DNA of 64,000 nt from an uncultured bacterium (lineage in GTDB: Bacteria > Fidelibacterota > Marinisomatia > Marinisomatales > TCS56), in the NCBI GenBank assembly GCA_964410945.1, contig CAYPJE010000004.1, positions 24,240 to 88,239 on the forward strand, written 5' to 3'. The notes under the pieces were generated by a model. It made no database searches. It was not told the DNA's origin and worked only from the letters and a program-made list of their open reading frames with translations. The translations under genes and the position numbers were made by a program. Shown piece by piece: positions 1 to 57,046 of the stretch (its first letter is position 1; each line of letters begins with the position of its first letter).

Positions 1-1704
1 CGGATTTACAGGTGTATCCACTGACCACCATATTGAATCTGATCCACCGATCAATTCCGGGTGGCCGTCATCATCAATATCAACCGATAAACGCAGATTC
101 AGAGTAGTATCGGGAAAACCGGTGACTATTAAATCAGAGTGAATGCTGATGGTCATAGTATCACCGGGGAAACCTATATCCTCAATAATAAGATGGCTGG
201 CAGCGCCCGAATTCGAGCGTGTATCAGGATAGGTATGGGGACCAAACACCAAGGGAAGGCCGGTCACATTCCGGTATAAATTTTCATACTCCGGATTCCC
301 CTGGTACCAGATATCACCAAAATAACCTGAGGTTGGATCGGTGAAAGTAAATACATTTATCTGTCCGATATCCTGGGCACCATCGGCCTCTTCCAGATCA
401 ACACCGCGGTGTTCCCGGTTCGCGTTTACGGTAAAATCCGCTATACCGGCATTAATCACATCTTCATCGATATGCCAGATCAAAAGACCCGATCCCGGTA
501 ATCCCAGATCATAATTTGGAATCTCGGTTACAACACCGATGGAATCAAATCCAATTGCGACCGAATCGAACAGTATTTCCACAAAAGGCGGATAACGAGG
601 ATTATCAATATCAGCTTCTTCTTCTGCCTTGTACATGGCCCAGCGGATCGAATCGATACTCACCTCCGGACGGAGCCAATTATTCCGGTTCTCGATCAAA
701 AAATATTCAGACTGGTTGAGATCCAGTTTTACCTGATTGCCATTCTCCCGCCGGATAACATCAATTTCATCGCCCGGGGCTGCGACTTCAGGTTCTTCCC
801 ATCCGGCATAGTAGCGCGCCCAGGCTACCGGCGGAGCAGGTATCAGTCCCCGGCCATTATTTGAACCCTGATCCATCAAACCGAAAATACCAACACCGGT
901 CTGCCCGGTTTCGATATTCCACAGCGGTGGAAATCCATTGGCAAAGCCAAACAACATAACAGCGGTACCCGTTAGACCGTACTGGTAATCACATGGTTCA
1001 CTGGCTCCGTAAAATATATCCTCGGAAATGGAATAAAGAAGGTGGTTCTGAGTTTCCGGTAGAATAATGCCCCGATCGATAATGTGACCGCCAACCGTGA
1101 TACCTGAAGATCCCAGATGTTCAGCGATCATATTCGGATCAACATAAGTTGAAGGAATGTCTTCCGGTGTCGGGTCAAGATAAGGCAGTTCAAAATCCTG
1201 GCCGATACCGGCATGATATACAATAACAACATCATAATCAGAGAAATCTATCTGATCTATAGAGTACGCCAATTCAACGGCATCCTTAAATAATTCCACC
1301 AACCTTAGTTCATGATTATCTTCATCACCGTAACCATGATAATAGGCCATCGAATCCGGTAATTCGTAACTGGCGTTTAGTCCAGCCGGGTATAAATCAG
1401 AATTATCCAGATCAATTCCAAACTGGTCTTTAGAAACCGAGCGGAAGTAATTATTCATCGCCTTAAGCTGGGCTTCGAAATATACTCGGTTATGCGGTGG
1501 CGGATCGATTGTGTAATTGCCACAGGTATCATAATCCGCATCGATCATGAATTGTCCAGTCCCGGTTGTGCCGGGATTTGAATCGGATTTAAATGATACC
1601 CGGAGTGCGGCCACTTTCCTGAAGCCGGTTATATCAGCATAAATCAATCCGGTTAATAGAATGAAGTAAAGTGCAACAGCCCTTTTTCTGGCGCTCACAA
1701 TCAT
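1..1704 (-). CDS. Secreted M6 (immune inhibitor A)-like protein. The 5' end is complete and the 3' end runs off the left window edge. The expected HExxH position reads MLFGF.
   Basis: This gene is absent from the ORF track because there is no stop codon inside the window. The minus frame is open from ATG 1704-1702 down to nt 1 (568 codons, hand-translated). The N-terminus MIVSARKRAVALYFILLTGLIYA looks like a signal peptide. The blocks GLMDQGSNNGRGLIPAPPVAWARYYAGW and GLLIWHIDEDVIN...GVDLEEADG resemble M6/InhA-type domains as I remember them. An Asp-rich DIDDDGHPELIGG segment lies near the window edge. Confidence 0.6.
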   Translation of the reverse strand, partial: MIVSARKRAVALYFILLTGLIYADITGFRKVAALRVSFKSDSNPGTTGTGQFMIDADYDTCGNYTIDPPPHNRVYFEAQLKAMNNYFRSVSKDQFGIDLDNSDLYPAGLNASYELPDSMAYYHGYGDEDNHELRLVELFKDAVELAYSIDQIDFSDYDVVIVYHAGIGQDFELPYLDPTPEDIPSTYVDPNMIAEHLGSSGITVGGHIIDRGIILPETQNHLLYSISEDIFYGASEPCDYQYGLTGTAVMLFGFANGFPPLWNIETGQTGVGIFGLMDQGSNNGRGLIPAPPVAWARYYAGWEEPEVAAPGDEIDVIRRENGNQVKLDLNQSEYFLIENRNNWLRPEVSIDSIRWAMYKAEEEADIDNPRYPPFVEILFDSVAIGFDSIGVVTEIPNYDLGLPGSGLLIWHIDEDVINAGIADFTVNANREHRGVDLEEADGAQDIGQINVFTFTDPTSGYFGDIWYQGNPEYENLYRNVTGLPLVFGPHTYPDTRSNSGAASHLIIEDIGFPGDTMTISIHSDLIVTGFPDTTLNLRLSVDIDDDGHPELIGGSDSIWWSVDTPVNP

Positions 1705-1730
1705 CGACCTTTTAGCTTAAATGGATAAAA

Positions 1731-3041
1731 TTAAAACTCGATATTCAACGAAAAACGCATGGTATTTGACAGGGCATCGTACTCATCACCATAGATATAG
1801 CCAAAATCAAAACCATAGCCTGAGAAACGCAGTCCGAAACCCAAGGTCATATTGCTGATTTTGCCGGTCTTATCGTAATAATAACCGGCGCGCAGAGCAA
1901 AATTGTTGGAATACCAGTATTCCATACCGATATTGTGGACCAGTTTATCAACCTCGTCCATGATCGAACGATCATCACCGGTGCCGACTTCCTTCTCACC
2001 ATCTTTATTATATTTGCCATAATCATCATCGCCATATGAACCACCGGATGGGACCCAATTGTCATCACCCTGTTTAACATAGCCACCGATTACACCGTCG
2101 GAATCCAAATCGATATCGCCGCCAAGCAGCCAGTCATCCACCCAGGAGGTAAATACCCCCAGATAGATCGGATCGGTGTGGGCTGTTTCGCGCTGACCAT
2201 CTTTATTGTATTCAGCATTGGCGGTTGACGGATGACCATCTTCATCAAATTGTCCAACCAACCCATCTCCATCCCAGTCCATGTCCGGATAGGATGCCAC
2301 CAGCATTTTATCAATATCATAGACCAGGCTGAGACGATTATAGGGAGTATCAACCAGTTTGTAGTTAAAGCCCAGTGTGAAATTGGTCGGCTGGGGATCG
2401 GCCTGGGCGGCATCGATAAAGGCCACCTTTGGTCCGATATTTGTCACAGTCAAACCAAGATCCAGTTTATTTCTTAATAATCCTTTACGCATATATCCAA
2501 TATCGAAACCGAAATCAGTAGATGTACCCTTACCAATCTCACCACCGGCACCAACATCGGTCAAATGTTGATAGGATATTTTTGCATTGATACCTATCGA
2601 TGAATTTTGCGACAAAAGTGCGCTGTAACTCCCTGCAATCGCAAACATATAGGTGGTGAAGGTTCCCAGATCTTCAGCTAATTCGCCGGTGCGCTGCTGT
2701 TCTCCGAGATTCAGGAAGATAAGGTGACCGCCAAGTGTACCCAGGTTTTCGACATGATCCCGATAAGCGAAAAATTCATAGTACAAATCATCGGCCAGAT
2801 TAGGCAGCCAGTTGACATGCATAACCGCCAATTCCGATCCCTTCAGGAAACCCAGTCCGGCCGGATTCCAGTAACTGGCATAGGCATCATTGGCGACTGC
2901 TACCTGGGCCTCACCCATACCGCCGGCACGAGCTCCGGGTGATATTAATAGAAATATGGCTCCTGCCTCACTCTGTGCCTGCAGGATTCCAAAGGTCGAC
3001 ATCAGTACTGACAACGACAATACGAGCAATTTAATCTTCAA
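1731..3041 (-). CDS. PorV/PorQ-family outer-membrane beta-barrel protein with an Asp-rich insertion
   Basis: 436-aa ORF with a TTG start, preceded by GGAGG (3052-3048) at a 6-nt spacing. Signal peptide MKIKLLVLSLSVLMSTFGILQA. The motif FLLISPGARAGGMGEAQVAVANDAYASYWNPAGLG is typical of PorV/PorQ-type barrels. The sequence alternates beta-strand-like segments and ends in Phe. Confidence 0.75.
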   Translation of the reverse strand: MKIKLLVLSLSVLMSTFGILQAQSEAGAIFLLISPGARAGGMGEAQVAVANDAYASYWNPAGLGFLKGSELAVMHVNWLPNLADDLYYEFFAYRDHVENLGTLGGHLIFLNLGEQQRTGELAEDLGTFTTYMFAIAGSYSALLSQNSSIGINAKISYQHLTDVGAGGEIGKGTSTDFGFDIGYMRKGLLRNKLDLGLTVTNIGPKVAFIDAAQADPQPTNFTLGFNYKLVDTPYNRLSLVYDIDKMLVASYPDMDWDGDGLVGQFDEDGHPSTANAEYNKDGQRETAHTDPIYLGVFTSWVDDWLLGGDIDLDSDGVIGGYVKQGDDNWVPSGGSYGDDDYGKYNKDGEKEVGTGDDRSIMDEVDKLVHNIGMEYWYSNNFALRAGYYYDKTGKISNMTLGFGLRFSGYGFDFGYIYGDEYDALSNTMRFSLNIEF

Positions 3042-3238: not shown

Positions 3239-5047
3239 TTAAAACAATAATCCAATCGACAAAAACGGCAGGTAGGTAATCAATAAAACGACAGCCAGTC
3301 GTATCAGGAAAAATGGCAGGGTTGCTTTATATATTACCGGCATCGGTTCCTCGAACCGATAGGCCGACAGAAATAGGTTCATCCCAACAGGCGGGGTTAG
3401 AAAACCCAGCTCCAGGTTGGCAATAAAAATGATTCCCAGATGCACCGGATCGATTCCAAAATGAATACCTAACGGTGCGATCAAAGGAACGACCACGATA
3501 ATGGCTGAAAAAATATCCATTAAACAGCCAACGGCCAGCAAAAATACATTCAACAAGATCAGAAAGGCATACTTAGATGATATCATCGACTGAACCAGGT
3601 TAAGCAGGCGCATCGGTATTTGTGCATCCACCAGGTAGCTGGTCAATCCCATGGCGACACCAAGAATGATTAAAACGCCGCCAATCAGGGTCGCGCAATC
3701 AATAATAATTTTTGGAAGTTGCTTAACACTCAAGTCTTTATAAATAAATACTTCAACAATAAATACATATACCGTAGTAAAAGCCGCTGTTTCAACCAGG
3801 GTTGTAAAACCGCCAAAGATACCGGCCAGGATACCGATCGGAATAACCGCTTCCCATTTTGATTCCCATAGGACTTTCAAAGCTGTATTTGCATTAAATC
3901 CGGTTCGTTTAATATGATCGACGCGGCCCTGCCGTATTCCCCAAACTGCTATCGTTAATACCAGAATTAAACCCGGTATTAAACCGGCTATAAACATATT
4001 CTTTACTGAAACACCTGCCGTAACGCCATAGATTATCGCCGGTAAACTCGGTGGAAACAGTAATCCCAGTGATCCGGAAACTGTTACCAACCCGATTGCA
4101 AATACCCGGGAATACCCCTCACGAATCAGTAGTGGAACAAGCAATCCGCCCAGTGCCAGGATTGTTACTCCGGAACCACCTGTTAAAGTGGTGAAAAAAC
4201 CACAGAGAATTACGACTACCACCGGGGTTCCGCCAGGAATCCATCCGAACCAGGTCCTGAATAATTTCAACATGCGTCCCGAGGCACCGCCACCAGCCAG
4301 GATATATCCGGCCAGTGTGAACAGTGGTATCGTTGGTAATGTCGGTGAAACTACGATCCGGTAAGTTTCAGCTGGTATGGCCGATACCGGTACAAAGGAA
4401 TTCCAGAACAATAAAACCGCTGCTCCACCCAGTCCAATGAAGATGGGCATACCGAAAATGAAACCGGTCAGCAATAGTCCGATCCCCAGAACGATTGTGA
4501 TCGCACTGTCCTGCAGGAAACCAGTCATCCCCAGGACAAAGATGATAACCGTTGCTATCAATAACGTGGCGCGCTGGAGCCGGTCGGAATAACTGCTGTG
4601 GTAAATCTGGAGGGCGATCAATCCAAAACCCAGAGGCATGATGGATTGCGCCAGCCAGATCGGAATCCCCGGTGCAAGTTCCCGGGGATAGGCTAATTCA
4701 ACCTTAACCAGTTTCCAACTGCCCCACATCAAAGCCAGGACGATCATAAAGGATAATGTTTTTGCCAGCCAGCGTCCAGTGTGAATTTCATTTTCCTGTG
4801 TAAATAGCGGTTTTACAGTCAGTGACAGTAATTTATTCTGCCTGGTTGCCAGAACAGCTCCGATAAATCCAATCCATAGGGTCAGATGTTGCACGATCAT
4901 TGCGGAAGATGGGATTCCCGGACGGCCAAAAGCTCTGAGGACAGTCTCATTAACCGGTAAAAATGTGATTACAAAAAATACAATCAGAGCCAGGGTATCT
5001 TCCCCCCAGCGTACCCGATTAATAAAGTTGGTAGCCAGCTTATTCAA
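3239..5047 (-). CDS. TRAP transporter fused small/large permease (DctQ-DctM fusion)
   Basis: 602-aa polytopic membrane protein. An N-terminal DctQ-like four-helix part is followed by a DctM-like body. It lies directly downstream of a DctP-type binding-protein gene, with an 8-nt gap. Confidence 0.85.
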   Translation of the reverse strand: MNKLATNFINRVRWGEDTLALIVFFVITFLPVNETVLRAFGRPGIPSSAMIVQHLTLWIGFIGAVLATRQNKLLSLTVKPLFTQENEIHTGRWLAKTLSFMIVLALMWGSWKLVKVELAYPRELAPGIPIWLAQSIMPLGFGLIALQIYHSSYSDRLQRATLLIATVIIFVLGMTGFLQDSAITIVLGIGLLLTGFIFGMPIFIGLGGAAVLLFWNSFVPVSAIPAETYRIVVSPTLPTIPLFTLAGYILAGGGASGRMLKLFRTWFGWIPGGTPVVVVILCGFFTTLTGGSGVTILALGGLLVPLLIREGYSRVFAIGLVTVSGSLGLLFPPSLPAIIYGVTAGVSVKNMFIAGLIPGLILVLTIAVWGIRQGRVDHIKRTGFNANTALKVLWESKWEAVIPIGILAGIFGGFTTLVETAAFTTVYVFIVEVFIYKDLSVKQLPKIIIDCATLIGGVLIILGVAMGLTSYLVDAQIPMRLLNLVQSMISSKYAFLILLNVFLLAVGCLMDIFSAIIVVVPLIAPLGIHFGIDPVHLGIIFIANLELGFLTPPVGMNLFLSAYRFEEPMPVIYKATLPFFLIRLAVVLLITYLPFLSIGLLF

Positions 5048-5055
5048 AATATAAT

Positions 5056-6060
5056 TTATTCTGCTTCTGTTTCTTGGGCGCGGCGTTCTTCCATCAGCTG
5101 TACAACGCGATCAAATATTTCAGCGGGAATCAGGCTGCCCCTGATTTCAGGATAAAACGACCGGGTCAATTCCAACCAGGATTGATATTCTTCCGCAGTT
5201 GGATGATGGACCTTCAACCCGTATTCTTCCATCACTTCAATCGCCTTTTCATCCATATGGCGGTTTATTTCCTGCTGTTTCAATCCAATTTCCTTTGCGA
5301 TCACAAGCATTTGCTCACGATGCTCGGGACTGATCTTTTCCCAGGTCTTTTTATCTATTACCGTCCCACCGGTAACCAGCCCCCATTTCATCTCCAGCAT
5401 ATGGGGAGCCGGACCGAAAAACTGATTTGAAAGGGCCATAATAGCTGGTGTGGCCAACGCATCTATTAATCCGGTCTGTAAACCGGATAAGACATCGATA
5501 TAGGCCAGTTGCACTGACTCATAACCGGCGGTCTGCCAAAGTTTAGTACTTTGATAATCACCGGCCCAGGTAAAAATGCGCATTTTCTTCAAATCCTGGG
5601 GCAATATCAGCGGATCGCGAGCAAACCAGTAAGCCCAACCTACATCACCCCAATTTATTATTACAAAGCCATTGTCTTCAAATTCAGCCGCCAGACCAGG
5701 GGCAATGTGTTCCCGGATGTAATCGACATCATCGTAATCCTGGAAGATCATCGGAACCAGAAATCCGAATACATTACGGGAAATTTCCGAAAGCCCTTCC
5801 GTAGTTACTGCCGCACCGTGGATCTGTCCGATCCGGATTTTCCGAATCATGTCCCGTTCATCCCCTACTACGCCACTTGGATAAAGCCTTAACGCTACCT
5901 GCCCATCAGTAGCTTCCTTCCAGCGCTGGCCCATTTCAACCATCAGGCCATGCATATCCGATCCCTGGGGTGCCAACGTGGCCATTTTGATTATTACCGG
6001 CTTGGCCCAGGCCGATGTAAAAAGAAGTATTGCCAATAATGTTCTGGTATGCGATTTCAT
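5056..6060 (-). CDS. TRAP transporter substrate-binding protein (DctP family)
   Basis: 334 aa with a signal peptide (MKSHTRTLLAILLFTSAWA). Its size and periplasmic-binding-protein character fit the family, and it sits between a TatT-like gene and a DctQM gene. Confidence 0.85.
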   Translation of the reverse strand: MKSHTRTLLAILLFTSAWAKPVIIKMATLAPQGSDMHGLMVEMGQRWKEATDGQVALRLYPSGVVGDERDMIRKIRIGQIHGAAVTTEGLSEISRNVFGFLVPMIFQDYDDVDYIREHIAPGLAAEFEDNGFVIINWGDVGWAYWFARDPLILPQDLKKMRIFTWAGDYQSTKLWQTAGYESVQLAYIDVLSGLQTGLIDALATPAIMALSNQFFGPAPHMLEMKWGLVTGGTVIDKKTWEKISPEHREQMLVIAKEIGLKQQEINRHMDEKAIEVMEEYGLKVHHPTAEEYQSWLELTRSFYPEIRGSLIPAEIFDRVVQLMEERRAQETEAE

Positions 6061-6069
6061 AGTATCCTG

Positions 6070-6996
6070 TCAGTAAAAAAGTTCATCTTCACGGCTCAAC
6101 AGCCAACGGGCACGATCCTGGGCCAGTAAATTTGATAGACGATTTTCCGGTGCTGAATCAACATCAAAATCGATGGCAGTCTGCAAGAATTCAATGAATT
6201 CTTCCCGATTTTGATTACGGATTGAAAACGTCTCAGCCGCCGAGACATACAGGCTGCAATCCTTGCCAGCGCTGATTTCTATAGCCTTCTGAAAATATTT
6301 GCGGGCAATTTCCTCAGAATTAGCTTTCATATCCGGTCGACTCAATTCATAACTCATCATAGCGCTATAAATGGTACCATTTCCCCAATCGCTGTCCAAT
6401 TCCATAATTCGCTCGAACAGGTAGCCGACTTCAGGCAAATCTATCAGCAATTGCGGATTACCCTGACTGGCAATAATTGCACCGGCCTGGGCAGCCGCCA
6501 TCCAATACATTGCGTCAATCTGATCAACTTCCAACATCCCGACTGCTTGGACCGGGTCGAGTTTGAATGCTGCTCCAAAGCCATTCACCTGCGACTCCAG
6601 AGATCGCAGACCGTAGTTACGGCCCCTGAGCATCAATTTCTCGGCTCGTTTATAAAGCCGACGACTTGCCGCTATATCCTCAACTGCCATTCGATCAGCA
6701 TCTTCCATTATATAGGCATAGCCGTACATCGTAAAACCCGAAGCGGCAGCGGTCAGTAAATTAGAATTTTCCGGCGACTGCTGAATCAATAATTCAATGG
6801 CCTTTAAATTGAACGGGAAGGCTTCTCTGACCAACTCGGGATCGTCCTCAGTCAGATATAAATCACCGGCCGATCCAAATGAATTCCCAACTCGGTCAAT
6901 TATAAAAACAGTTGGCGAACAACCTGTAAGAACAATCAGAAAAATGAAAAATAAAAAAGGGCGGGCAATTATTCCGGGGTTAATCCGTCCAAGCAT
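6070..6996 (-). CDS. TatT-family TPR lipoprotein associated with the TRAP transporter (T-component of a TPAT system)
   Basis: The ORF track extends to 7095 and would then overlap glyA by 83 nt. The ATG at 6996 gives MLGRINPGIIARPFLFFIFLIVLTGC, which carries an LTGC lipobox. The body is helical and TPR-like. The gene order T-P-QM matches that described for Treponema TatT systems. Confidence 0.7.
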   Translation of the reverse strand: MLGRINPGIIARPFLFFIFLIVLTGCSPTVFIIDRVGNSFGSAGDLYLTEDDPELVREAFPFNLKAIELLIQQSPENSNLLTAAASGFTMYGYAYIMEDADRMAVEDIAASRRLYKRAEKLMLRGRNYGLRSLESQVNGFGAAFKLDPVQAVGMLEVDQIDAMYWMAAAQAGAIIASQGNPQLLIDLPEVGYLFERIMELDSDWGNGTIYSAMMSYELSRPDMKANSEEIARKYFQKAIEISAGKDCSLYVSAAETFSIRNQNREEFIEFLQTAIDFDVDSAPENRLSNLLAQDRARWLLSREDELFY

Positions 6997-7012
6997 CAAT
7001 AACCGGCTGCAA

Positions 7013-8326
7013 TCAATGAATTTCCCGGTAAAGCGGAAACGCATCACAGAGTGAATTGACATCTGATTTGGTTCGATCCAGGAAATCTTCATCATCGGGA
7101 TTACTGATTACCTGATCAATCAGGTCACAGATAACTTTGATTTCCGCTTCTTTCATCCCTCTGGTGGTAACTGCCGGTGTTCCGACCCGGATACCACTGG
7201 TAATAAAGGGACTTTTGGTATCAAATGGAACCATGTTCTTATTGACTGTTATCCCGGCTTTTTCCAAAGCGTTTTCAGCCTTTTTCCCGGAGATTCCCTT
7301 ATTCGTAAGGTCAATCAGCACCAAATGCGTATCAGTGCCTCCCGATATTAAATTATAATCCCGGTTCAGAAATTCTGTTGCCATAGTCTGTGCGTTAATG
7401 ATTACCTGTCTGGTATAGTCCTTGAATTCAGGCCTTAAAGCTTCACCGAAAGCAACTGCCTTGGCAGCTATCACATGCATTAAAGGTCCACCCTGGATTC
7501 CAGGCATAACCATTGAATCAATCAACTCGGAAACCATTTTTACCCGTCCGGACTTGGGAGCGACTTTACCCCAGACATTTTCCGTATCCTTGCCAAGCAG
7601 TATCATCCCCCCCCGGGGTCCGCGCAAGGTTTTGTGGGTAGTGGTGGTTACTACATCACAGTACTCCATTGGCGACGGATGAAGACCGGTAGCAACCAAT
7701 CCCGAAGGATGGGCTATATCGGCCATGAGAAAAGCTCCGCATTTATCGGCAACTTCCCGAAACTGCTCGAATTCGATAAACCGTGGGTAGGCGCTGCCAC
7801 CACAAATGATCAATTTGGGTTTATGTTCTCTGGCCAGTCGATTTACTTCGTCAAAATCAACCCGTCCGTTTTCTTTATCAACGTGATATGATATCACATT
7901 GAATAACCTTCCGGAGAAGTTGACCGGACTCCCATGGGTAAGATGTCCTCCATGGGATAGATCCAGCCCGAGGATCGTATCGCCTACTTCAAGGAATGTG
8001 AGTAAAGCGGCCATATTAGCCTGGGAACCGGAATGAGGCTGAACATTAGCATATTCAGCCCCAAATAATTCTTTGGCCCGGTCGCGGGCCAGATTTTCTG
8101 CTTCGTCCACATGCTGGCAACCACCGTAGTAGCGCTTGCCGGGGTAACCTTCCGCGTATTTATTGGTCATAACACCGCCCGCCATCTCCAATACCGGATA
8201 GCTGACAAAGTTCTCAGAAGCGATTAATTCCAGAGTGGAATCTTCACGGTTGATTTCTCGATCCAGAATTGCGTGCATTTCCGGATCGGAAGCCTTTAAA
8301 TGACTAAAAACGGAAGAAGTACTCAT
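7013..8326 (-). CDS. glyA: Serine hydroxymethyltransferase
   Basis: 437 aa. Motifs [16 protein letters not shown] and [14 protein letters not shown] (PLP lysine) are present. Confidence 0.97.
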
Positions 8327-8343
8327 TAATTTACCCTAACTAT

Positions 8344-9612
8344 TTACCAGGATGCATCTTTCGTGAGTTTTTCGCTAACCCATTCGTAGCAACCGTTTCC
8401 GGTTTCCACATAACCAATACTTTGCTGCTCGGGAGTCAACATGAACCACTGTTGTTTACGGAAGATGACATCTTTTTCATTCTCCTGCAACCAACGGCGA
8501 TTGCTGCTTTTCCTGGTAAAACCAAGTTTCTCAGCTTCCAGATAATTTCTCAATGCCAATGTTGCCACAATGCGATCCTCATCCCTGATACTGCTGGTAC
8601 GACAGGTATTGAAAGATTTATAGTACACATTCGCCTTCTGCGCAATAGCTGCCCCATCTTTTGGAGCAAGTGAGATAGCACGGTTTGCCCAGCGCATTGC
8701 TTTTTCAAAATCAAGAGCCAGCTCATTTATCTCAGAAATCTTAATTGCCAACTGTACGTCACGGGGATCAAGTTTGAACAGTTTCTCATAGGCCAGCGAC
8801 GATTCTTCCAGCTCATTTGCGGCAAACAGGGATTCTCCCTTCAAACGATACAGTGGCTTACTATTCGGATCCTCAATCAAACCATCTTCAATAAATTCGA
8901 CGGCATCAATCGCCCGGCCATTGTCAACCAGCCGGCGGGAAAGATCGATTATATATGAAATATTATCCGGGTTATCTTTTACTCGCTGAATATACCACTC
9001 CAATGGATCACCGCCAATCATCTCTGTAGCGATAGCAATTTCGCTGGTAGCTTCTTCGTTATTGGGGTCTATTTTCAGTAATTGTCTCAGGACGAAAATC
9101 TGATCTTTGTACAATTCCTGATCTTTGTATAAACCAGCTAATTCGGACATCGTCTCCGTATCGGTAGAATCAAGTCCGATCACTTTCTCATACTCATTGA
9201 TTTCCTGCTCAATTTTGCCCTGTTTCTTATAAGAATAAGCCAGACGTTTACGCAAGGGCAGATTATCAGGTAGTTTTTGCAGACCCTTAAGGAGAACATA
9301 TTCGGAGCTGTCGTAGTGGCTCATGAATTCATAAGCGATCGCATAATAAAGATATACTTCTTCCTCTTCTCCGCGGTCGCAACCCATCTCGACAATATCA
9401 TTATAAACGCGGACAGTCGATTTCCAGTCACGATTCTTATAGTACTCAGCTGCACTACTTAATAGACGGGGGCAACGAACCTGTCGTAGTGAATCCAAAC
9501 GTTTTTGCTCGGCCAGGGCAGCTGCATCGGCACCATCATCCGGCGGGACGCACATAGTAATAAATGCCAGTACCAAACTGAGTAAGGCGGTTTTTAAAAT
9601 AAACTGTTTCAT
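8344..9612 (-). CDS. Secreted or lipid-anchored TPR-repeat protein
   Basis: The ATG at 9612 gives MKQFILKTALLSLVLAFITMC, a signal peptide with Cys at the cleavage region. Multiple TPR-like repeats follow. The start lies 1 nt from the stop of the upstream barrel gene. Confidence 0.7.
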   Translation of the reverse strand: MKQFILKTALLSLVLAFITMCVPPDDGADAAALAEQKRLDSLRQVRCPRLLSSAAEYYKNRDWKSTVRVYNDIVEMGCDRGEEEEVYLYYAIAYEFMSHYDSSEYVLLKGLQKLPDNLPLRKRLAYSYKKQGKIEQEINEYEKVIGLDSTDTETMSELAGLYKDQELYKDQIFVLRQLLKIDPNNEEATSEIAIATEMIGGDPLEWYIQRVKDNPDNISYIIDLSRRLVDNGRAIDAVEFIEDGLIEDPNSKPLYRLKGESLFAANELEESSLAYEKLFKLDPRDVQLAIKISEINELALDFEKAMRWANRAISLAPKDGAAIAQKANVYYKSFNTCRTSSIRDEDRIVATLALRNYLEAEKLGFTRKSSNRRWLQENEKDVIFRKQQWFMLTPEQQSIGYVETGNGCYEWVSEKLTKDASW

Positions 9613-9613
9613 T

Positions 9614-10879
9614 TTATCGTTTTCTCCTTTTAACGAACCAGGTATCACCAATTGCTATTTGTATTTCTAATTTTTCCACTGTCTCTGTTTCATCTAAAAC
9701 CGGGCCTCGACGGCTCCCAATCGAGTATGCCAAATTAATAGAATTATTACTGAATCCAAATTTAAAACCGGCCCCCAGTGAAATTCCCGTTTCAATCAAT
9801 TTCTCATCAGCCGGTTTAATCTCCCAACCATCATAATAGACACCGGCGCGCAATTGGATTTTCTGCTTCAGGGCACGGGAAAGCGGTTTTGTAAATTTTA
9901 CAATTCCCAGGTTGAAATGACTGTAATTACCAAAATAATAATCATTAATCGGCTTAAGGAAATCCGGCAATTCACTGGAATTGAACTGAGCCAGGTATTC
10001 GGTGTTCAATTCAACCAGAGAAGCCAGCCGGTAACTGGCACCAATACTTAATTCAAAAGGATGATAGGTATCCTCATAAATTTCAGTTTCTTCCATCTTC
10101 GAACTGCTGATATACGGAAAATCATAGTAATCACTATAATAGCCGCTGCCATCCGAATCTTCATATAAATGGTATTGTACAGATCTGATTTTAAGTGGCT
10201 GTAAGGCAAGCCCCAAACTGAAGTATAAATTCAAAGGACGATTTTGGATCGTATAACGGTGTGAATTCAGGTAATAGTTAACATTCATACCAGTGTATGA
10301 ATCATGTCGGCTATAGTAATAGTTATCATCGTCCAGACTGATAATCGAACTATGCCGTGACGAACCAAACATTACCTCCAGCTGCAGCGCCTGGTGCTCA
10401 TATTCTGTTAGTGGAAAACCAACCGCCGTTTCAATCGAGCTGATTCCCCCGGCACCTTCGATGGAATATTGTGCCGATAATGTATCTTCAAAAAACACAT
10501 AGTCGGCAACGCTGGTCAATAAATTGTAATTATTATTTGTAATTGGCCTGATATTAATTCCCCAGGAATATTTGCCTGCAATGGGAAGGATCAATTGAAG
10601 CGGGCCAATGTCAGCGTAGGAATTGGAACCTGATCCCACATCTACCATTTGACTGGAAAAATTACCACCGAGGATAGCATATCTGCTGTTGTGCCAGGTA
10701 GACGGATTGCTAACGGAAAGTTGCCGGTCAAATGCAGGTACTAAGCCCAACGAACCGGTTCCGGATGACGCCGCATCGCTATAACCGGAATATAACCCAA
10801 GCCCAATCGAATTGTGAATACTTTGCCCGAAGACCAGAGTGCTGACAACTGATATCAGTAATAGTTTACGGAAGTACAT
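9614..10879 (-). CDS. Predicted outer-membrane beta-barrel protein of unknown function
   Basis: 421 aa with signal peptide MYFRKLLLISVVSTLVFGQS. It is rich in Gly, Ser, Tyr and Asn with alternating beta-strand pattern. The C-terminal segment is LEIQIAIGDTWFVKRRKR. It overlaps the upstream lipoprotein gene by 14 nt. Confidence 0.6.
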   Translation of the reverse strand: MYFRKLLLISVVSTLVFGQSIHNSIGLGLYSGYSDAASSGTGSLGLVPAFDRQLSVSNPSTWHNSRYAILGGNFSSQMVDVGSGSNSYADIGPLQLILPIAGKYSWGINIRPITNNNYNLLTSVADYVFFEDTLSAQYSIEGAGGISSIETAVGFPLTEYEHQALQLEVMFGSSRHSSIISLDDDNYYYSRHDSYTGMNVNYYLNSHRYTIQNRPLNLYFSLGLALQPLKIRSVQYHLYEDSDGSGYYSDYYDFPYISSSKMEETEIYEDTYHPFELSIGASYRLASLVELNTEYLAQFNSSELPDFLKPINDYYFGNYSHFNLGIVKFTKPLSRALKQKIQLRAGVYYDGWEIKPADEKLIETGISLGAGFKFGFSNNSINLAYSIGSRRGPVLDETETVEKLEIQIAIGDTWFVKRRKR

Positions 10880-12122
10880 ATATCACCTCCAGACGTGGGC
10901 GTTTTTCTGTAACAGGAGATTTTTCGGAGTGAAAATGATAGGTTTTGAAGGGATTATTACTTGTAGTACTGAACAGTTTCATTCCATAATTACCGGCCTG
11001 TTCCAACACGACGGCCTGCATCATGATTCTGGTTTCCAACTCCACTGTACCGTCAGCTTCAAAATTATCAGGCAGTTCCAATTGAGCTGTGTAAGGATCT
11101 TCTTCACTGCTGAAGTAATGGTAATCACTGTACTCGGTCGTATCGATTGAGTAAATGCCTACGGTGAATCCGGAATCTGCCTCACTGGCTGTATCTTTCC
11201 ACAACACCAGATTGGCAGATTTGATCAATGCCTCCGGAGCAAGGAAAGTACTGTCATAGTCCAGCATCAGAACCGACCTGACGCCTAAGGCGGTCCCTAG
11301 GCTGATTGTTGTCGTATCCACATCTGTAATAGCCGGGGGAATAACCACACTCAGGTCACTTCCGACATAAAATGTATAATCCAATGTATCTATATCGCTT
11401 TCTTCGGAAGCCTGGTATTGAAAAGTTATATCCATATATGGTTGGTAGGAGGATTCCTCGGAGCTGCGAAAAGCCTGCCGACCTTCGGTGGGATTATCAC
11501 GCCAAACGATGAATGTTCGATTGGTTACACCATCGGTTGTTTTTGCAAAATCGGCCAAAATTGTATCCGCTTCAGAGGTCAAGTCGAATTTTAAATAGGG
11601 ATAATATGAGGCCGTATCGCTGGTAAGCCTGGTGGTCGCAATCGGGAATCCCATCCGGCTCTTTATGTAAGCCGTATCCAGGTTTAAATAATTACTTGCC
11701 GATTCATCGAAGACAGAATCCATTTCAGCCACAGGTATATTGGTGATATGATAATCATATAATTGGTCCGGCAGTACCGTATCACGATATGTCAAATACA
11801 GAAACAGACTGTCTATCCCCAGAACTAACGAAGTATCCAGCGATAAAACTGAAATTTCATATCCTGAGGAGTAAAAGCCCATATTCAATAATGTATACGG
11901 GCATTGAAAAGTCGAATCCGTACCAAAATACAAGCTGTTGATTGCTCCCATGGCAGGTGGTATTCGATAAGTGAATGAGTTGATATCTAAAAGCAGGGTG
12001 TCCCCCACCAAGAATTCGATATCAGATATTAAATCGGAAGTTATTGGGTCGTCCATGCAACTAGTAAACAGCAGCAGAAATGACATTAATAGGACAAGTC
12101 CAATCATTTTGGATAAGGCCAT
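10866..12122 (-). CDS. Lipoprotein of unknown function
   Basis: 418 aa. The N-terminus MALSKMIGLVLLMSFLLLFTSCMDD has an FTSC lipobox. It is acidic and Ser/Thr/Tyr-rich. It might belong to the DUF4270 lipoprotein family, which I recall next to short GlgA-like genes in Bacteroidota. That recollection is unverified. Confidence 0.6.
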   Translation of the reverse strand: MALSKMIGLVLLMSFLLLFTSCMDDPITSDLISDIEFLVGDTLLLDINSFTYRIPPAMGAINSLYFGTDSTFQCPYTLLNMGFYSSGYEISVLSLDTSLVLGIDSLFLYLTYRDTVLPDQLYDYHITNIPVAEMDSVFDESASNYLNLDTAYIKSRMGFPIATTRLTSDTASYYPYLKFDLTSEADTILADFAKTTDGVTNRTFIVWRDNPTEGRQAFRSSEESSYQPYMDITFQYQASEESDIDTLDYTFYVGSDLSVVIPPAITDVDTTTISLGTALGVRSVLMLDYDSTFLAPEALIKSANLVLWKDTASEADSGFTVGIYSIDTTEYSDYHYFSSEEDPYTAQLELPDNFEADGTVELETRIMMQAVVLEQAGNYGMKLFSTTSNNPFKTYHFHSEKSPVTEKRPRLEVIYVLP

Positions 12123-19874: not shown

Positions 19875-20915
19875 TTAATCAATTAATTGAGAAATTTTAC
19901 TGCAGATAAAATCGCCGACCTCAGAAGTGCCCATACTGCCCCCCAAGTCCCTGGTAGACCAACCTGCTTCCAGGGCTAGCCCTATCGATTCATCGAGCAC
20001 AGCGGCCAGCTTGTCCTGTTTCAGATGCTGCAGAATGGCAACCAGAGACCGAAAGGTGCCCAAGGGATTGGCAGCATCTTTTCCGGTGAACCGTTCCGAC
20101 GGTGGATGGAGCACATGAAACAGCCGTTGTCCTTCCGGACTGCGGTAGGACTCATATGCCAGACCGAGCCCGCCTTCCATGGCAGCAGCTAACTTAGAGA
20201 TCAGTTGGCCAAACGGTGGCACGGTGAGTATCAGATCAAGATCATCAGGTTTATGGAGTAATTTGAACAAGAGAAAATCAATACTCAAATATACCGGCAT
20301 AATATCATGATCATTGAGAAGATCATTAATCCTTCGCAACCAGGGATTATCCTTATTCAGTTGTGAATCAAGCAGCGCAACCGTCAATCGGCTATGTATT
20401 TTATTATCGATCTGTGATTTGATATATTCAACAATTGGATCAATCGATATAGAGGTTGAGATATCAAGATTCAGAAATGCACTTTCATTATCTGACAGTC
20501 TTGTTGCCAAATATGGTGAAACAGTAAAGGAATTGCTCACATCCTGTAAAACCCGGATATTATATACATCATCATTCAGTAGACCGCCCGAGGGATTAAA
20601 TGATAAAACAGCACGGTCCAGTATTGTCAAATTAAGTCGTTCGATGAATGACTTGAATATCCCGTTCTTCAATTTGGTACCGTCAGCGGCCTTTTCAGCC
20701 AGCGGGCCGATCCAGATTGCATCAGAATTACGGCACTCATCGATCACGGTACTGGAAACCGGAAATCCAGTCTCCTGATAATAGGCTTTACCCAGATCAA
20801 ACTCATGCAGGTTAAACTTGATTCTGGTATATGACTCCAGTGCAGAAAATATTTTATGAATTTCCCGTGCGATCTCTGGCCCGACACCATCACCCGGGAT
20901 AATCGCCAGCTTCAC
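19875..20915 (-). CDS. Isocitrate/isopropylmalate dehydrogenase-family homolog, probably non-catalytic
   Basis: 346 aa with a GTG start that overlaps the upstream stop (GTGA). The N-terminus MKLAIIPGDGVGPEI is typical of the family. The canonical G-D-I-L-S-D block reads PFGQLISK, so both Asp residues are lost. HGSAPD reads HPPSER. Confidence 0.75.
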   Translation of the reverse strand: MKLAIIPGDGVGPEIAREIHKIFSALESYTRIKFNLHEFDLGKAYYQETGFPVSSTVIDECRNSDAIWIGPLAEKAADGTKLKNGIFKSFIERLNLTILDRAVLSFNPSGGLLNDDVYNIRVLQDVSNSFTVSPYLATRLSDNESAFLNLDISTSISIDPIVEYIKSQIDNKIHSRLTVALLDSQLNKDNPWLRRINDLLNDHDIMPVYLSIDFLLFKLLHKPDDLDLILTVPPFGQLISKLAAAMEGGLGLAYESYRSPEGQRLFHVLHPPSERFTGKDAANPLGTFRSLVAILQHLKQDKLAAVLDESIGLALEAGWSTRDLGGSMGTSEVGDFICSKISQLID

Positions 20916-22174
20916 CAGATCGTTTCTCCAAAATACGGCGTTGCCAAACGATAATCTCCAAAACCGGTGGCGTCAATAAATGTAAATGATCTGTTAACGG
21001 AATAATAATGCCAAATCTGTCCGGCCGCATTGGAGATTGAGGAATATGCGCGCTCTATATCATCGGGAGCCCCGAATAGAATATAGATCATTCCCATATC
21101 CGATCGCCAGCCTGGTAGAAATGTCGAAAACTGTTTGTTTGCAAACCGAACCCGGTGGTAGTATTCTTCCATCAGTTCATTCTTAACGGTGTGCGGAGTT
21201 GGATCATGTTTATCCCAGAATTCCTTGAATAATATCTCCTTCTCACTGACGTTTGCCCGTTTAAATCTCTTAATATCGTCTTCGTCCAGAATATATCTCA
21301 GTTGATCAACGGCCAGCTCGATATCGCTGATTGTGGCCGGTATACCAGGATGCGTAATTGACAGTCGCAATGTCTCGCTAAATGTTTCCTTATCCTGGTG
21401 AAGGCTAACAATAAAATGTACATTCAAATCCCTGAGTATTTCCTGGGGGATGTGCATTATTGTTGAGAACAGGCTTGATTCATCAAGGTTGTTGTATTCC
21501 AGATTATTATCCAGAAGAACACTGTCCGAGTTATTTATAGCCACTACGGTAATGCTGAAGGGTTTGGTTTCAATTTTTCCGCTTGCCAGCAAGTAGTAAT
21601 TATCGTTCTCCTCGGGAATCCTAAAATTCATTACCGGAATCATATCATCACCAATCCCCCAATTGCCCGGCTTCTTTTTCAACAGGATAATCGGAAAAAG
21701 GAAGACACCATCCAGATATGGTGTCATATCCAGCTCAATCTCTTCCCGGCTGGCATTGTGGGTATCCCGATCCAGGACCTCAGCCGATACTATCAATTCC
21801 TCGGTTGGCAATACCAGGTTAGCATACAGGGTTGTAAACAACGTTGTCGAGACTGTCTCACGGTAATCGACTATATCAACTGAACGGGTCCATAATTGAC
21901 GGCCTTTTTGAAACCCATCTTTATTTTTTATAGAAACAGTCGCTTCAAATCGCGCCTGAAACCCTGAATCATTTTTAACAAATTGCAGCGAGGAATTAGG
22001 AATTTCCAGATAGATCACTGTTTTAACCGAATCAACGGCAATTGCCTCAATCGGCATGGCAGTCAAATGGAACGGGTTACGATTTTCTTCTTCATTCCGC
22101 CCGAAGTTCCCCCCGTCCTGAGCCATAAGAAATTGCATGGCAATAATTGTATAGATAACTGTTTTTACTTTCAT
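20912..22174 (-). CDS. GWxTD domain-containing secreted protein
   Basis: The ATG at 22174 forms an ATGA overlap with the upstream stop and gives MKVKTVIYTIIAMQFLMAQ, a signal peptide. The C-terminal motif is FLPGWRSDMGMIYILFGAPDDIE. Confidence 0.8.
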   Translation of the reverse strand: MKVKTVIYTIIAMQFLMAQDGGNFGRNEEENRNPFHLTAMPIEAIAVDSVKTVIYLEIPNSSLQFVKNDSGFQARFEATVSIKNKDGFQKGRQLWTRSVDIVDYRETVSTTLFTTLYANLVLPTEELIVSAEVLDRDTHNASREEIELDMTPYLDGVFLFPIILLKKKPGNWGIGDDMIPVMNFRIPEENDNYYLLASGKIETKPFSITVVAINNSDSVLLDNNLEYNNLDESSLFSTIMHIPQEILRDLNVHFIVSLHQDKETFSETLRLSITHPGIPATISDIELAVDQLRYILDEDDIKRFKRANVSEKEILFKEFWDKHDPTPHTVKNELMEEYYHRVRFANKQFSTFLPGWRSDMGMIYILFGAPDDIERAYSSISNAAGQIWHYYSVNRSFTFIDATGFGDYRLATPYFGETIW

Positions 22175-23823
22175 TGATCTATCCGCCAAATGAATTTTAT
22201 TAATCCTTCCGTGGTTCCAATCCAAATCTCGTCACCGGAAATATACACATCATTCATATTACCCATGAAATTATAATCATATTCCCTGTACGAACCGGTT
22301 TCAGTGCTGATGCGGAACAACCCGTCATTCACTGCCAGCCATAGATAGTTGTCATCTCTATCCATTGATCGTATATATTTTCCTTTGTAAATCACCGGAC
22401 TCAAGATTTTTGACCATTGGCCGGATGTTTTGTTAAAGGAAAGAATTCCGGTAGATGTTCCAACCAGCAGAGAATCACCATTGATGGTCAGGGAGGTAAA
22501 TCCGCTGAAAGTATCAAATTCCGGTTGAAATGATTCGTTCCGATAGTACTGTTTATATTCCATCAGCCGATTGTCATCAAACTCCAGTATTCGCAGGTTT
22601 TGAACCGAGGCAATCCAGAGACTATTTCCATAAACCGCCAGATCAGAGATGTATTGTTCGCTATAAACGGACTCTAATCCGGTCAACAATTTTTGATAAC
22701 TGCCGACTGCCAAACATCCGATCCCCCGGGAGGATCCAATCCAAACCCTGGATTTACTGTGTACCAGTACATTTATCCGGCCAGGTGGAACACCGTTGGC
22801 TTCATTCAGAGTCCGCCATGAGTCAAGATTTTTATTGTAAACCAGAATCTGTCCGTTTCCACCAAACCACAATTCATCACCGATAGACATTGCAGAATAC
22901 AATGGCTGAGGGGCCATATTGATAATATTTCTGGAATAAAAATTATCATATACATTACGCTTAATATCGATTCTGCTAACGCCAGCCTCGTTTTGGGTAC
23001 CGGGTCGGCCGCTCACCCATAATCCATGGTAGGGTAAGATAAACTGGATATCAGCCGTCACCAGACCGATTGGAATATTCTCGAAGGTATTCATCTGGGG
23101 ACTGCTTTTAAATACTGTTCCCCGGTCAGTCCCAATCCAACTGTCACCCAGTCTGGTTCTGTAAAATGTGGTTATACCGTGATATTCACCTTTTGGATCC
23201 AACAAACCGCGGTCAAACAGATCCCACCCCCCAAACAGGCTATAATCGCTGAGAATATCAACAGGATCGATGTAGGTGGGTATAAAACCACCACTCCAGT
23301 CAATTGTATCCGAGTCGGGGTTGATCATTTGGCCGATCATAATCCCGGAATTTCGATCGCATTTGATAACCAGAGTTCTGGTCCGGCACCAAAGATAACT
23401 TTCATCTGAACCAATCTGAATGATCCGGTCTGACCGGCCCAGGCCAAGATCATCGAAACCAATCTTCTGCCAGCCACCTTCCCGGTCAAAGCTATAACAC
23501 AAGAATCTTGGCGTTGCCACCCAGATAATTCCGGTATTGCTGTCAACATGAACGGCCGTGGTTCTATTAGCCGGTAATCCCTGGGCCGTGCTCAGTGGTT
23601 CCTCAAACTGAAAGGCATAATTATTATAACGCCAGACACCACCGGATTCAGTGGCGATATAGGTAAACAACGTACCTTCAGTGATAGCATTGATTTGACC
23701 TGTTGGTCGATATAGGACCCAATCAAAAGGATGATGATGGGGAGCAGGCTGGCAATAAACCATCGCGCATAAAATGGTTACCAGTCTAATCAGGTATTTA
23801 AGTACTGTGAGTCCTTTAAGCAT
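22171..23823 (-). CDS. Secreted beta-propeller protein (two-component-regulator-propeller-like repeats)
   Basis: 550 aa with a signal peptide. Repeats of the type (L/I)W(I/V)G(T/S)xxG recur: SWIGTDRGTVF, LWFGGNGQILVY, VWIGSSRGIGC, LWLAVNDGLFRI and IWIGTTEGLIKF. Confidence 0.7.
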   Translation of the reverse strand: MLKGLTVLKYLIRLVTILCAMVYCQPAPHHHPFDWVLYRPTGQINAITEGTLFTYIATESGGVWRYNNYAFQFEEPLSTAQGLPANRTTAVHVDSNTGIIWVATPRFLCYSFDREGGWQKIGFDDLGLGRSDRIIQIGSDESYLWCRTRTLVIKCDRNSGIMIGQMINPDSDTIDWSGGFIPTYIDPVDILSDYSLFGGWDLFDRGLLDPKGEYHGITTFYRTRLGDSWIGTDRGTVFKSSPQMNTFENIPIGLVTADIQFILPYHGLWVSGRPGTQNEAGVSRIDIKRNVYDNFYSRNIINMAPQPLYSAMSIGDELWFGGNGQILVYNKNLDSWRTLNEANGVPPGRINVLVHSKSRVWIGSSRGIGCLAVGSYQKLLTGLESVYSEQYISDLAVYGNSLWIASVQNLRILEFDDNRLMEYKQYYRNESFQPEFDTFSGFTSLTINGDSLLVGTSTGILSFNKTSGQWSKILSPVIYKGKYIRSMDRDDNYLWLAVNDGLFRISTETGSYREYDYNFMGNMNDVYISGDEIWIGTTEGLIKFIWRIDQ

Positions 23824-37756: not shown

Positions 37757-39628
37757 CTATTTCAGTGACTTCAATTCGATCATTCGCAAGATATCCATTA
37801 CGTCCAGGCTGCCATTGAAATCCATATCTCCTGATGAAGAATCCTTCACCGTTGATTCAATTTCTCCCAATACTATCCCCAGCATACGGTTGATATCGTA
37901 GTCAGACAGATATCCGTCACCATCGATATCTCCAAGTAATCCATCCGGTCCCGGAACAACTGCCTGTGCATAGATGGGTATGCTGGTTGAATCATTTTCA
38001 GCTAATCGAACGGTAACCGTATATAAGTATTCCCTGCCACCAGGTAAATTGGTATCAGTATACTCCTGCATGCCATTATTCACCGTTGCAAGATAGTCAC
38101 CATCACGCCGGATATCGATCATGAATGAATCAATTGGATCACCGTTTATTAATGTATCCGGATCCTCCCAGGACAGATGAATCGCATACCAGTAACTTGT
38201 ATCAACGGCCAGATTGGTAATGCTTCCCGGGTCCAGCGTGTCAACTGACAGGTAGTGTTTTGCCTGCAACAAAGCCTTGAACAGATTTAACCTTCCACTA
38301 CTGACGGTAATATCATTTAGGGCCGGAATTGTATCCACAGTGGATAAAATCATATCCTTGATTTTAAGTGCGCCTGTTGCAGGATAGTTTCTATAGATAT
38401 TGGCAAAATCAGGTGTAAAAACGGTATGCAGAAGCCCGATCGTACCAGCAACATGGGGGGTTGCCATCGATGTGCCCGTTTTTGTCCCGGTGGCTGCATC
38501 ATCGACTATTGACAATATGTTTGTTCCCGGAGCACCAAGATCAATGGATTCTCTTCCATAAGCAGCCGTTGACTGCAATTCATCGCGGTGGGTCGTATTA
38601 GTTACCGTAACCAGATAGTCACTATCGCACCCCGAAGGAACATCACCCTGGGTATCCACATCGGCGGTAATGTTCATTGTTGCCACCGCATTCAGAATAC
38701 CTGCTACGCCAAGGGCATCATACATATCATTCCATAACGGATAACTACCCGAATTACAATCGGCATAATTGATACCAAAACTACTATTGGTAGCTACAAT
38801 ATACGCCCCGGCTGTCCCTCCGCTGGCGTTATACAGCAGGCGCTGTTCGAGAATATAATTATAGGCCTGCATTGCCGTTGAAGTGTATGATGATGCACCG
38901 GCGACTGGCATAACCTTGACATTCCAGTTGACTCCGCTGACCTGGTTGGTATTATTGCCATCGGCCCCGATTATACCACAGACATGAGTACCATGATCAT
39001 CATTAGGAATAATCCCGGTGGAATCAAAAGCATTCCACCCATGAATATCGTCAACATAACCATTATTGTCATCATCAACCAGACTGTCACCATAGAATTC
39101 AGTCCAGTTTGTCCACAAATTAGCCTTTAAATCGGGATGTATCAGCTCACAGCCGTCGTCAATAACTGCGACTACGATTGTATCACTGTTTAGATTTATA
39201 CCACCGGTAGCTATATCCCAGGCTTCCGGGGCATCGATATCAGCATCTTCAAGTCCCCCGGTTTGACCGGAATTTTCCAATGCCCACTGGTTGCCGAATA
39301 ATGGATCGCTGGGATAAGACGAGCGCCTGGTCAGCCGATGATCATACTGCGCCGCTTCAACCCAGGGATTCGCTTGGATATCAGCCAGGGCCTGCGCCGG
39401 AGATACGGTTTGAGTATCTATTTTTACTGTAACAATATTCAATCGCGGGACAATTTCCCTATCGACCGCATAGGATAGCCGGTCGGCAGTAGCATCGAAA
39501 CCTATCCGTCCCACAACCGGTGCCAGTTTGACCAGAATTCGGTCACTGGCATATTCCTGGCCGAAGGTAATACTCAGTCCGGTTATTATCAGCAGTATTG
39601 AGATAATCTTGTGATTAATGTGGTTCAT
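37757..39628 (-). CDS. Secreted subtilisin-like serine protease (S8) with an FN3-like domain and a C-terminal dockerin-like domain
   Basis: The catalytic triad sits in VAVIDDG, HGTHVCGIIGA and GTSMATPHVAGT. The C-terminus reads GDIDGDGYLSDYDINRMLGIVLG...GDMDFNGSLDVMDILRMI, two dockerin-type Ca-binding repeats. The ATG at 39628 gives the signal peptide MNHINHKIISILLIITGLSITFG. The ORF track extends to 39661. Confidence 0.9.
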   Translation of the reverse strand: MNHINHKIISILLIITGLSITFGQEYASDRILVKLAPVVGRIGFDATADRLSYAVDREIVPRLNIVTVKIDTQTVSPAQALADIQANPWVEAAQYDHRLTRRSSYPSDPLFGNQWALENSGQTGGLEDADIDAPEAWDIATGGINLNSDTIVVAVIDDGCELIHPDLKANLWTNWTEFYGDSLVDDDNNGYVDDIHGWNAFDSTGIIPNDDHGTHVCGIIGADGNNTNQVSGVNWNVKVMPVAGASSYTSTAMQAYNYILEQRLLYNASGGTAGAYIVATNSSFGINYADCNSGSYPLWNDMYDALGVAGILNAVATMNITADVDTQGDVPSGCDSDYLVTVTNTTHRDELQSTAAYGRESIDLGAPGTNILSIVDDAATGTKTGTSMATPHVAGTIGLLHTVFTPDFANIYRNYPATGALKIKDMILSTVDTIPALNDITVSSGRLNLFKALLQAKHYLSVDTLDPGSITNLAVDTSYWYAIHLSWEDPDTLINGDPIDSFMIDIRRDGDYLATVNNGMQEYTDTNLPGGREYLYTVTVRLAENDSTSIPIYAQAVVPGPDGLLGDIDGDGYLSDYDINRMLGIVLGEIESTVKDSSSGDMDFNGSLDVMDILRMIELKSLK

Positions 39629-39657
39629 ATCGGATTTATAATCAGGTAAATTTAGTT

Positions 39658-56966: not shown

Positions 56967-57046
56967 TTAGGAACAGAAAGGGTTGTTAGAGTAATAAAAT
57001 TCAACTCAGGTATTTCATATTTACCCTGCAGATTCTAAAATTGAAC

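Follow-up and report, generated by a model that had tools for sequence, protein, structure and literature searches.

The closest described relatives of the protein analysed here belong to the M6 metallopeptidases, living and dead, and to the surface proteins of the system for type IX secretion (T9SS). NCBIfam release 20.0 holds an equivalog model of 1043 positions, NF052323, named "T9SS-dependent M6-like inactivated metalloprotease", which describes an M6-like domain without a working HExxH, followed by an FG-GAP-type beta-propeller and a T9SS type A sorting domain. The active M6 peptidases, of which immune inhibitor A (InhA) of Bacillus and PrtV of Vibrio are family examples, combine a catalytic scaffold and a beta domain with discoidin-like or other domains at the C-terminus. 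PorU and PorZ, from the T9SS attachment complex of Porphyromonas gingivalis, are large proteins of the cell surface with a T9SS C-terminal domain (CTD), and both associate with a PorV-family barrel. Of the two, PorU is an active sortase of the C25 type; PorZ consists of two propellers and a CTD, without a protease-like domain. Here we analyse a gene at the edge of a 64,000-nucleotide stretch (the window) of contig CAYPJE010000004.1 from an uncultured marine bacterium of the Marinimicrobia (Fidelibacterota). It encodes a homologue of the M6 peptidases in which all zinc ligands and the catalytic glutamate are replaced, and which lies in a conserved gene cluster next to a PorV-family barrel. We refer to its product as the pseudoprotease.

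The window contains the first 568 of the 954 codons of the gene (positions 1 to 1704, minus strand), and the frame runs to the window edge without a stop. An earlier description of this DNA, made from the letters alone (the preliminary description), had translated the gene by hand from ATG 1704, and the peptide strings quoted there are reproduced exactly by translation of window positions 1 to 1704. The public gene call places the start two codons later at GTG 1698, an alternative start. Extension into public assemblies recovered the full-length protein of 954 amino acids (P0001), which is 100% identical to the window fragment and is encoded on a 47.6-kb public contig, L001, that reaches beyond the window edge. 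The N-terminus resembles a signal peptide, MIVSARKRAVALYFILLTGLIYA followed by an Asp (positions 1636 to 1704, minus strand; putative cleavage site): on inspection it has a basic n-region (RKR), a hydrophobic core and small residues (IYA) ahead of the Asp, and AlphaFold2 (AF2) predicts a helix for residues 2-17. A 67-residue open reading frame (ORF) lies antisense within the gene (516 to 719, plus strand); it is unsupported and we take it as a chance ORF.

The M6 domain model TIGR03296 matches the window fragment with an E-value of 1.4e-16. The scores, 61.2 bits for the fragment and 58.1 bits for the full-length protein, lie below the curated cutoff of 110.8, and Pfam scans of the fragment and of the full-length protein gave no reported match to Peptidase_M6. 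As Pfam is silent, the M6 assignment is carried by TIGR03296, NF052323 and direct alignment. A tblastn search with a family member, P0245, retrieved plasmid-borne proteins annotated as M6 proteases from Bacillus (E = 9e-13) and also from Sinorhizobium and Clostridium. We then aligned the family profile to real M6 proteins from B. toyonensis (WP_259418087), C. felsineum (WP_077834634) and S. mexicanum (WP_245181567), all three of which retain an intact zinc motif (HELGHSFGLPD in B. toyonensis, HEWGH, and HESGHMIYGYPD in C. felsineum). The hhalign comparison gives a probability of 99.9% and an E-value of 4.5e-32 over 336 aligned columns, and places the homologous region, i.e. the InhA-type metallopeptidase domain and the following beta domain, at residues 78-532 of P0001 (window positions 103 to 1467, minus strand). 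This confirms from sequence comparison that the pseudoprotease is a true M6 (InhA-like) homologue, far beyond chance. The suggestion of an M6/InhA-like secreted protein is thus borne out by the profile matches and by the appearance of the N-terminus, and the search against domain models that had been proposed as a check succeeds with TIGR03296 and fails with Pfam.

The zinc motif HExxHxxGxxD is replaced by MLFGFANGFPP (positions 925 to 957, minus strand). MLFGF comprises amino acids 250-254 counted from ATG 1704 (nucleotides 957-943), and both MAFFT and hhalign place M-L-F-G-F on H-E-x-G-H and align the motif's Asp with the second Pro of GFPPLW. Thus His is replaced by Met, Glu by Leu, the second His by Phe and Asp by Pro, and all three zinc ligands are gone together with the catalytic Glu. 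The loss of both His ligands and of the Glu had been proposed before, and the alignments add the replacement of the third ligand. Neither HExxH nor HxxEH is present anywhere in the 954 residues of the full-length protein. As the M6 homology is significant and the motif does not occur elsewhere in the protein, the original observation stands. The surrounding scaffold is retained. The Met of GLMDQGS (positions 874 to 876, minus strand) aligns in MAFFT with IMGNGS, LMASGS and LMSGA of the real M6 proteins; we interpret it as the metzincin Met-turn, as in the InhA structure. The flanking blocks noted in the preliminary description likewise align with real M6 sequences, namely GxxxLM(x)GS, PxxPxAW..GW, WHIDE and LEEADG.

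The loss of the motif extends through the whole family. An exhaustive HMMER search gave 2294 representative clusters (50% identity) with E ≤ 1e-3, of which 518 reach E ≤ 1e-30. A relative is encoded in at least 200 species-level genomes, and nearly all of the sampled Marinimicrobia genomes have one. We aligned 145 diverse full-length relatives, and HExxH is missing at this place from every one of them. The column of the catalytic Glu holds Met (57), Leu (49), Asn (23) or Gln (11) and never Glu. The first His column is mostly Leu, Ser, Phe, Ile or Ala, the second is Phe, Ser, Tyr, His or Asn, and the Asp ligand column is Pro, Asp, Ala, Ser or Asn. The helix Gly, in contrast, is kept in 136 of the 145 sequences, the Gly at +3 in 138 and the Met of GLMDQGS in 142; the WHID and EEADG blocks are also retained. 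Because the motif is lost in 145/145 while the helix glycines and the Met of the presumed Met-turn persist, the family is best understood as a conserved pseudoenzyme and not as a decaying gene. Some members retain remnants of the motif (HQFGH, the second His only, or the Asp only), which indicates descent from an active ancestor. An entire family of more than 2000 clusters that lacks the motif and is nevertheless well conserved further implies that the loss is old and that the protein is under selection. Such a pattern marks an inactivation in the distant past, after which the former ligands underwent relaxed drift while the scaffold was preserved.

The comparison with NF052323 places the pseudoprotease within a kind of protein that has already been curated. 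The model matches the window fragment with E = 1.9e-96 and 324.1 bits and the full-length protein with E = 1.5e-117 and 394.0 bits, against a cutoff of 600. As the score falls below the cutoff, the Marinimicrobia proteins form a divergent branch, and public records give them only a generic name, "T9SS type A sorting domain-containing protein", or list them as "hypothetical". Two of the nine distant relatives scanned pass the cutoff, P0215 (614.5 bits), whose relatives carry the name candidate division KSB1, and P0245 (601.3 bits). Both share with the Marinimicrobia locus the gene order of PorV, the dead M6 protein and a protein with an MA-clan protease domain and a TolB-like propeller. The Marinimicrobia protein has the three-part architecture described by NF052323 but is about 70-90 residues shorter, and its motif is more eroded, reading MLFGF...P where P0215 and P0245 read HQFGH...S. 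The concept of a dead M6 homologue with a T9SS signal is therefore already curated in NF052323; the reading is right but not new, and in this respect the result is correct but modest. The Marinimicrobia protein is a divergent member of a curated kind that, as far as we found, is undescribed in any paper.

With the active M6 peptidases the pseudoprotease shares the catalytic scaffold and the beta domain over the roughly 336 aligned columns, including the blocks FHAG, GxxxLM(x)GS, PxxPxAW..GW, YFLIENR, WHIDE and LEEADG/LEQADG. Unlike them, it has neither zinc ligands nor the catalytic Glu, it contains an insert of about 55 residues after the ENR sequence as well as the blocks TTGxGxF, IDPPPH, DPTPxDIPS and LPETQN, and its C-terminal modules are a propeller and a T9SS CTD.

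The AF2 model, computed with an alignment of 75 sequences, has a predicted local distance difference test score (pLDDT) of 91.9 and a predicted template modelling score of 0.90; the single-sequence AlphaFold prediction reached a pLDDT of 33, and the alignment was needed for a confident model. In the model an alpha/beta region extends to about residue 345 and includes a helix (243-253) that bears the MLFGF stretch. A helical insert and a beta domain that ends near residue 520 come next; the region between about 525 and 860 is all beta, and a beta-sandwich, the CTD, occupies 862-953. Profile searches of the PDB match the PVL and PHL lectin propellers to profile positions ~525-555 and 702-858. 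Together with the model this identifies an FG-GAP-like beta-propeller that begins at window positions 1 to 124 (minus strand) and continues past the window edge. Recovery of the C-terminus by contig extension, which had been suggested as a check for a sorting domain, reveals a T9SS type A sorting domain at residues 870-949, beyond the window and above both thresholds (TIGR04183, 31.2 versus 23; PF18962, 36.1 versus 27). The same region also matches other T9SS cargo models, e.g. NF038113. Thus, the architecture is an M6-like domain in the N-terminal ~520 residues, a beta-propeller and a T9SS type A sorting domain. PDB sequence searches, whether started from the single protein, from two family profiles or from an HQFGH member, found no solved M6 structure, only propeller lectins and the CTDs of PorU and PorZ. 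A structure prediction with fold search had also been proposed: the prediction yielded the confident model, whereas Foldseek with the whole model returned propellers only.

Directly upstream of the pseudoprotease gene, as the preliminary description had indicated, lies a gene for a PorV/PorQ-family outer-membrane barrel of 436 amino acids (positions 1731 to 3041, minus strand), which matches PF19572 (PorV) with E = 7.2e-26 and NF033709 with 247.6 bits against a cutoff of 90. It scores 190 bits with the PorV equivalog NF033710, below the cutoff of 250. The protein spans the PorV family model of 326 positions and exceeds it in length by about 85 residues. The spacer between the two genes measures 26 nucleotides to ATG 1704 (positions 1705 to 1730, minus strand), one fewer than the 27 first reported, and 32 nucleotides from the PorV-family stop to GTG 1698. 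It contains an AAAGG motif upstream of the start, and no terminator-like site was found within it. This short spacing suggests that porV and the pseudoprotease gene are co-transcribed. The proposal of a cargo protein co-expressed with its barrel gains from the conservation of this adjacency, which extends well beyond the phylum, although it is one of several readings of the synteny.

The adjacency is part of a longer conserved order. In 80 species-level Marinimicrobia genomes the genes for DctQM, PorV, the pseudoprotease, a protein of ~980 residues, a DUF5683 protein and BamD follow each other in the same order wherever the contig reaches. As conserved order within one phylum could be mere inheritance, we compared six distant relatives (28-34% identity in the family alignment). 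In all six, PorV, the pseudoprotease and a protein of ~1000 residues stand in a row, and in four of them the flanks differ. One of these distant loci, L090, has a PorU sortase (L090:508-4389; NF033707, 666 bits versus a cutoff of 420) directly upstream of PorV. PorU was not found in the window or in the flanks of the locus, and scans of ten further window ORFs against NCBIfam gave no T9SS family match. The idea that the pseudoprotease substitutes for an absent PorU was considered and rejected as a general claim, as L090 has a bona fide PorU beside PorV and the pseudoprotease gene.

The protein encoded downstream of the pseudoprotease (~984 residues; L001:12868-15822, on the same strand and just past window position 1) combines an MA-clan protease domain, a TolB-like propeller and a probable Omp85-type barrel. 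It carries a Peptidase_MA_2 domain with an intact motif, HEFSH, and HExxH is preserved in 74 of 75 orthologues. The propeller matches TolB in the PDB with E = 1e-27. The C-terminal region ends in aromatic residues (...ILFGF) and shows weak Omp85/TamA similarity (PF01103 in two of ten members, E = 6e-5; TamA, E = 0.2-0.5), which is suggestive only of an Omp85-like barrel. No curated family covers this protein, and it adjoins the pseudoprotease in every lineage examined. In five of seven called loci the pseudoprotease stop and the next start abut or overlap, suggesting coupled translation. The downstream gene is a tighter genetic partner of the pseudoprotease than the PorV-family gene. This MA/TolB/barrel protein may be the more novel object at the locus. 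What is new here is the conserved cluster of PorV, a dead M6 protein and an Omp85-type protease, together with the rigorous column assignment for the motif.

Taking these data together, we consider it probable that the pseudoprotease is a dead, M6-derived exported protein that is sorted by the T9SS and has a non-catalytic binding or scaffold role at the cell surface in partnership with a neighbouring gene product. The protein would cross the inner membrane by Sec and would then be exported through the type IX system via its CTD, which would be bound by the PorV encoded 26 nucleotides upstream. Its final place would be the cell surface, where PorV would hold it or the PorU sortase would attach it, and it would act there as a binding or scaffold module and not as a protease. 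Its most likely partner would be the product of the gene that abuts or overlaps its stop, i.e. the putative outer-membrane MA-clan protease with the TolB-like propeller and probable Omp85-type barrel. The export route draws on the domain evidence, while the partnership and the binding role are our interpretation.

Several points weigh against this account. The lack of protease activity is deduced from sequence, as is the Sec signal peptide, which looks typical on inspection. In two lineages the synteny takes in unrelated housekeeping genes (serine hydroxymethyltransferase and NrdR), and the conserved order may therefore be partly inherited and not functional. The invariant blocks TTGxGxF, IDPPPH, DPTPxDIPS and LPETQN have no counterpart in real M6 proteins; these family-specific blocks (protein residues 44-50, 65-69, 175-183 and 213-218, with H69, H162, D168 and E215 included) might serve as a binding surface, or make up a calcium site or a new active site. 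Finally, in the literature on the T9SS, on M6/InhA pseudoproteases, on the T9SS of Marinimicrobia and on DUF5683/PorV/BamD we found no paper or experiment on the family.

We hold it possible, if rather unlikely, that the pseudoprotease is not an ordinary cargo, released or attached to the surface, but belongs permanently to the T9SS machinery for attachment and sorting, or else to a module of outer-membrane biogenesis, in a PorZ-like or PorU-like role and anchored on PorV by a CTD left uncleaved. The gene stands right after porV in every lineage examined, and after porU and porV in L090, and it is near-universal in the Marinimicrobia sampled. The combination of a large domain, a beta-propeller and a CTD recalls PorZ, which likewise contains beta-propellers, and the family CTD profile matches the C-terminal domains of PorU and PorZ (PG93) in the PDB. 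These CTD matches are generic, however, and the cargo model NF038113 matches the same region; outside the CTD there is no homology to PorZ or PorU, so that a functional analogy with them is conjecture. Outer-membrane biogenesis genes lie nearby (BamD, a weakly BamG-like gene and the Omp85-like barrel), and NF052323 is adjoined in accession by NF052324 ("PorU2") and NF052325 ("PorV2"), which is only a hint that the curators saw a related neighbourhood. Against this, the name chosen by the NCBI curators says T9SS-dependent, i.e. cargo.

In its most developed form, which we regard as speculative and doubtful, the pseudoprotease would be a fixed surface subunit of a conserved outer-membrane module in T9SS-bearing phyla outside Bacteroidota (Marinimicrobia, candidate division KSB1 and further relatives), anchored by its CTD on PorV and working with the translationally coupled Omp85-type barrel and the active MA-clan protease and TolB-like propeller that this barrel would carry. 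Possible roles would be that of a PorZ-like adaptor for the PorU sortase or of an extracellular "canopy" of an Omp85 machine. For the latter, a loose parallel exists in the surface subunits recently described for the Bacteroidota BAM complex (PMC12611786), a paper in which we found no link to the pseudoprotease family.

It is improbable, in our view, that the protein is still an enzyme, either a hydrolase that draws other ligands or another centre from the family-specific invariant His, Asp and Glu residues, or a protease whose metal site is unconventional. Polar residues that are invariant or nearly so do occur outside the old motif (H69, H162, D168, D175, D180, E215, E331, E336, H409 and D411), and the four invariant blocks are without counterpart in real M6 proteins; because these blocks are unexplained, a small probability is kept for a re-tooled site. 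Yet H162 (in HAG), E336 (in ENR), H409 and D411 (in WHID) and the EEADG block are common to the active M6 peptidases and probably structural, and the old ligand columns vary freely (F/S/Y/H/N and P/D/A/S/N), as in a relaxed and not a re-tooled site. Pfam and NCBIfam scans gave no match to other enzyme families. That the gene is a decaying relic or a mis-called ORF without function would fit the loss of all catalytic residues, but we give this almost no credence, as it is refuted by the conservation data: the frame is intact over 954 residues, full-length homologues from the phylum show 39-62% identity, the architecture recurs in thousands of relatives across phyla, the AF2 model is confident and the operon position is conserved.

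Several further genes of the region were annotated alongside the cluster. Upstream of the PorV-family gene lies a tripartite ATP-independent periplasmic (TRAP) transporter operon (window positions 3239 to 7095, minus strand) with a fused DctQ-DctM permease, a DctP binding protein and a TAtT-type T-component, followed by serine hydroxymethyltransferase (7013 to 8326). A tetratricopeptide-repeat protein (8344 to 9651, minus strand) adjoins a gene for a 421-residue protein (9614 to 10879, minus strand) with weak similarity to the Bacteroidota BAM subunit BamG (NF053685, 103 bits versus 250). BamD is encoded downstream of the cluster at L001:16760-17557, and genes for outer-membrane biogenesis abound in this region. 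Further candidates for envelope or secreted proteins are a DNRLRE-domain protein (10866 to 12122, minus strand), a GWxTD-domain protein (20912 to 22225, minus strand) and a subtilisin-like protein with weak mycosin/PrtP similarity (37757 to 39661, minus strand). A protein of 1003 residues (57041 to 60052, plus strand) contains a segment resembling PEP-utilising enzymes or PigC.

Marinimicrobia (SAR406) are abundant in the dark ocean and are thought to use proteinaceous matter in part. Given this diet and the dead active site, tallies of peptidases in genome surveys should not count the pseudoprotease as active. The gene also marks a deeply conserved and unstudied cluster, in which PorV and the dead M6 protein are accompanied by a fusion of a live metalloprotease, a TolB propeller and an Omp85-like barrel, and sometimes also by PorU and BamD, and it is this cluster of PorV, dead M6 protein and Omp85-type protease that is worth following up. 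To our knowledge, nearly all experiments on the T9SS and on outer-membrane assembly have been done in Bacteroidota. If the proteins of the cluster cooperate, the locus could offer a view of how type IX secretion or the assembly of the outer membrane is arranged outside that phylum.

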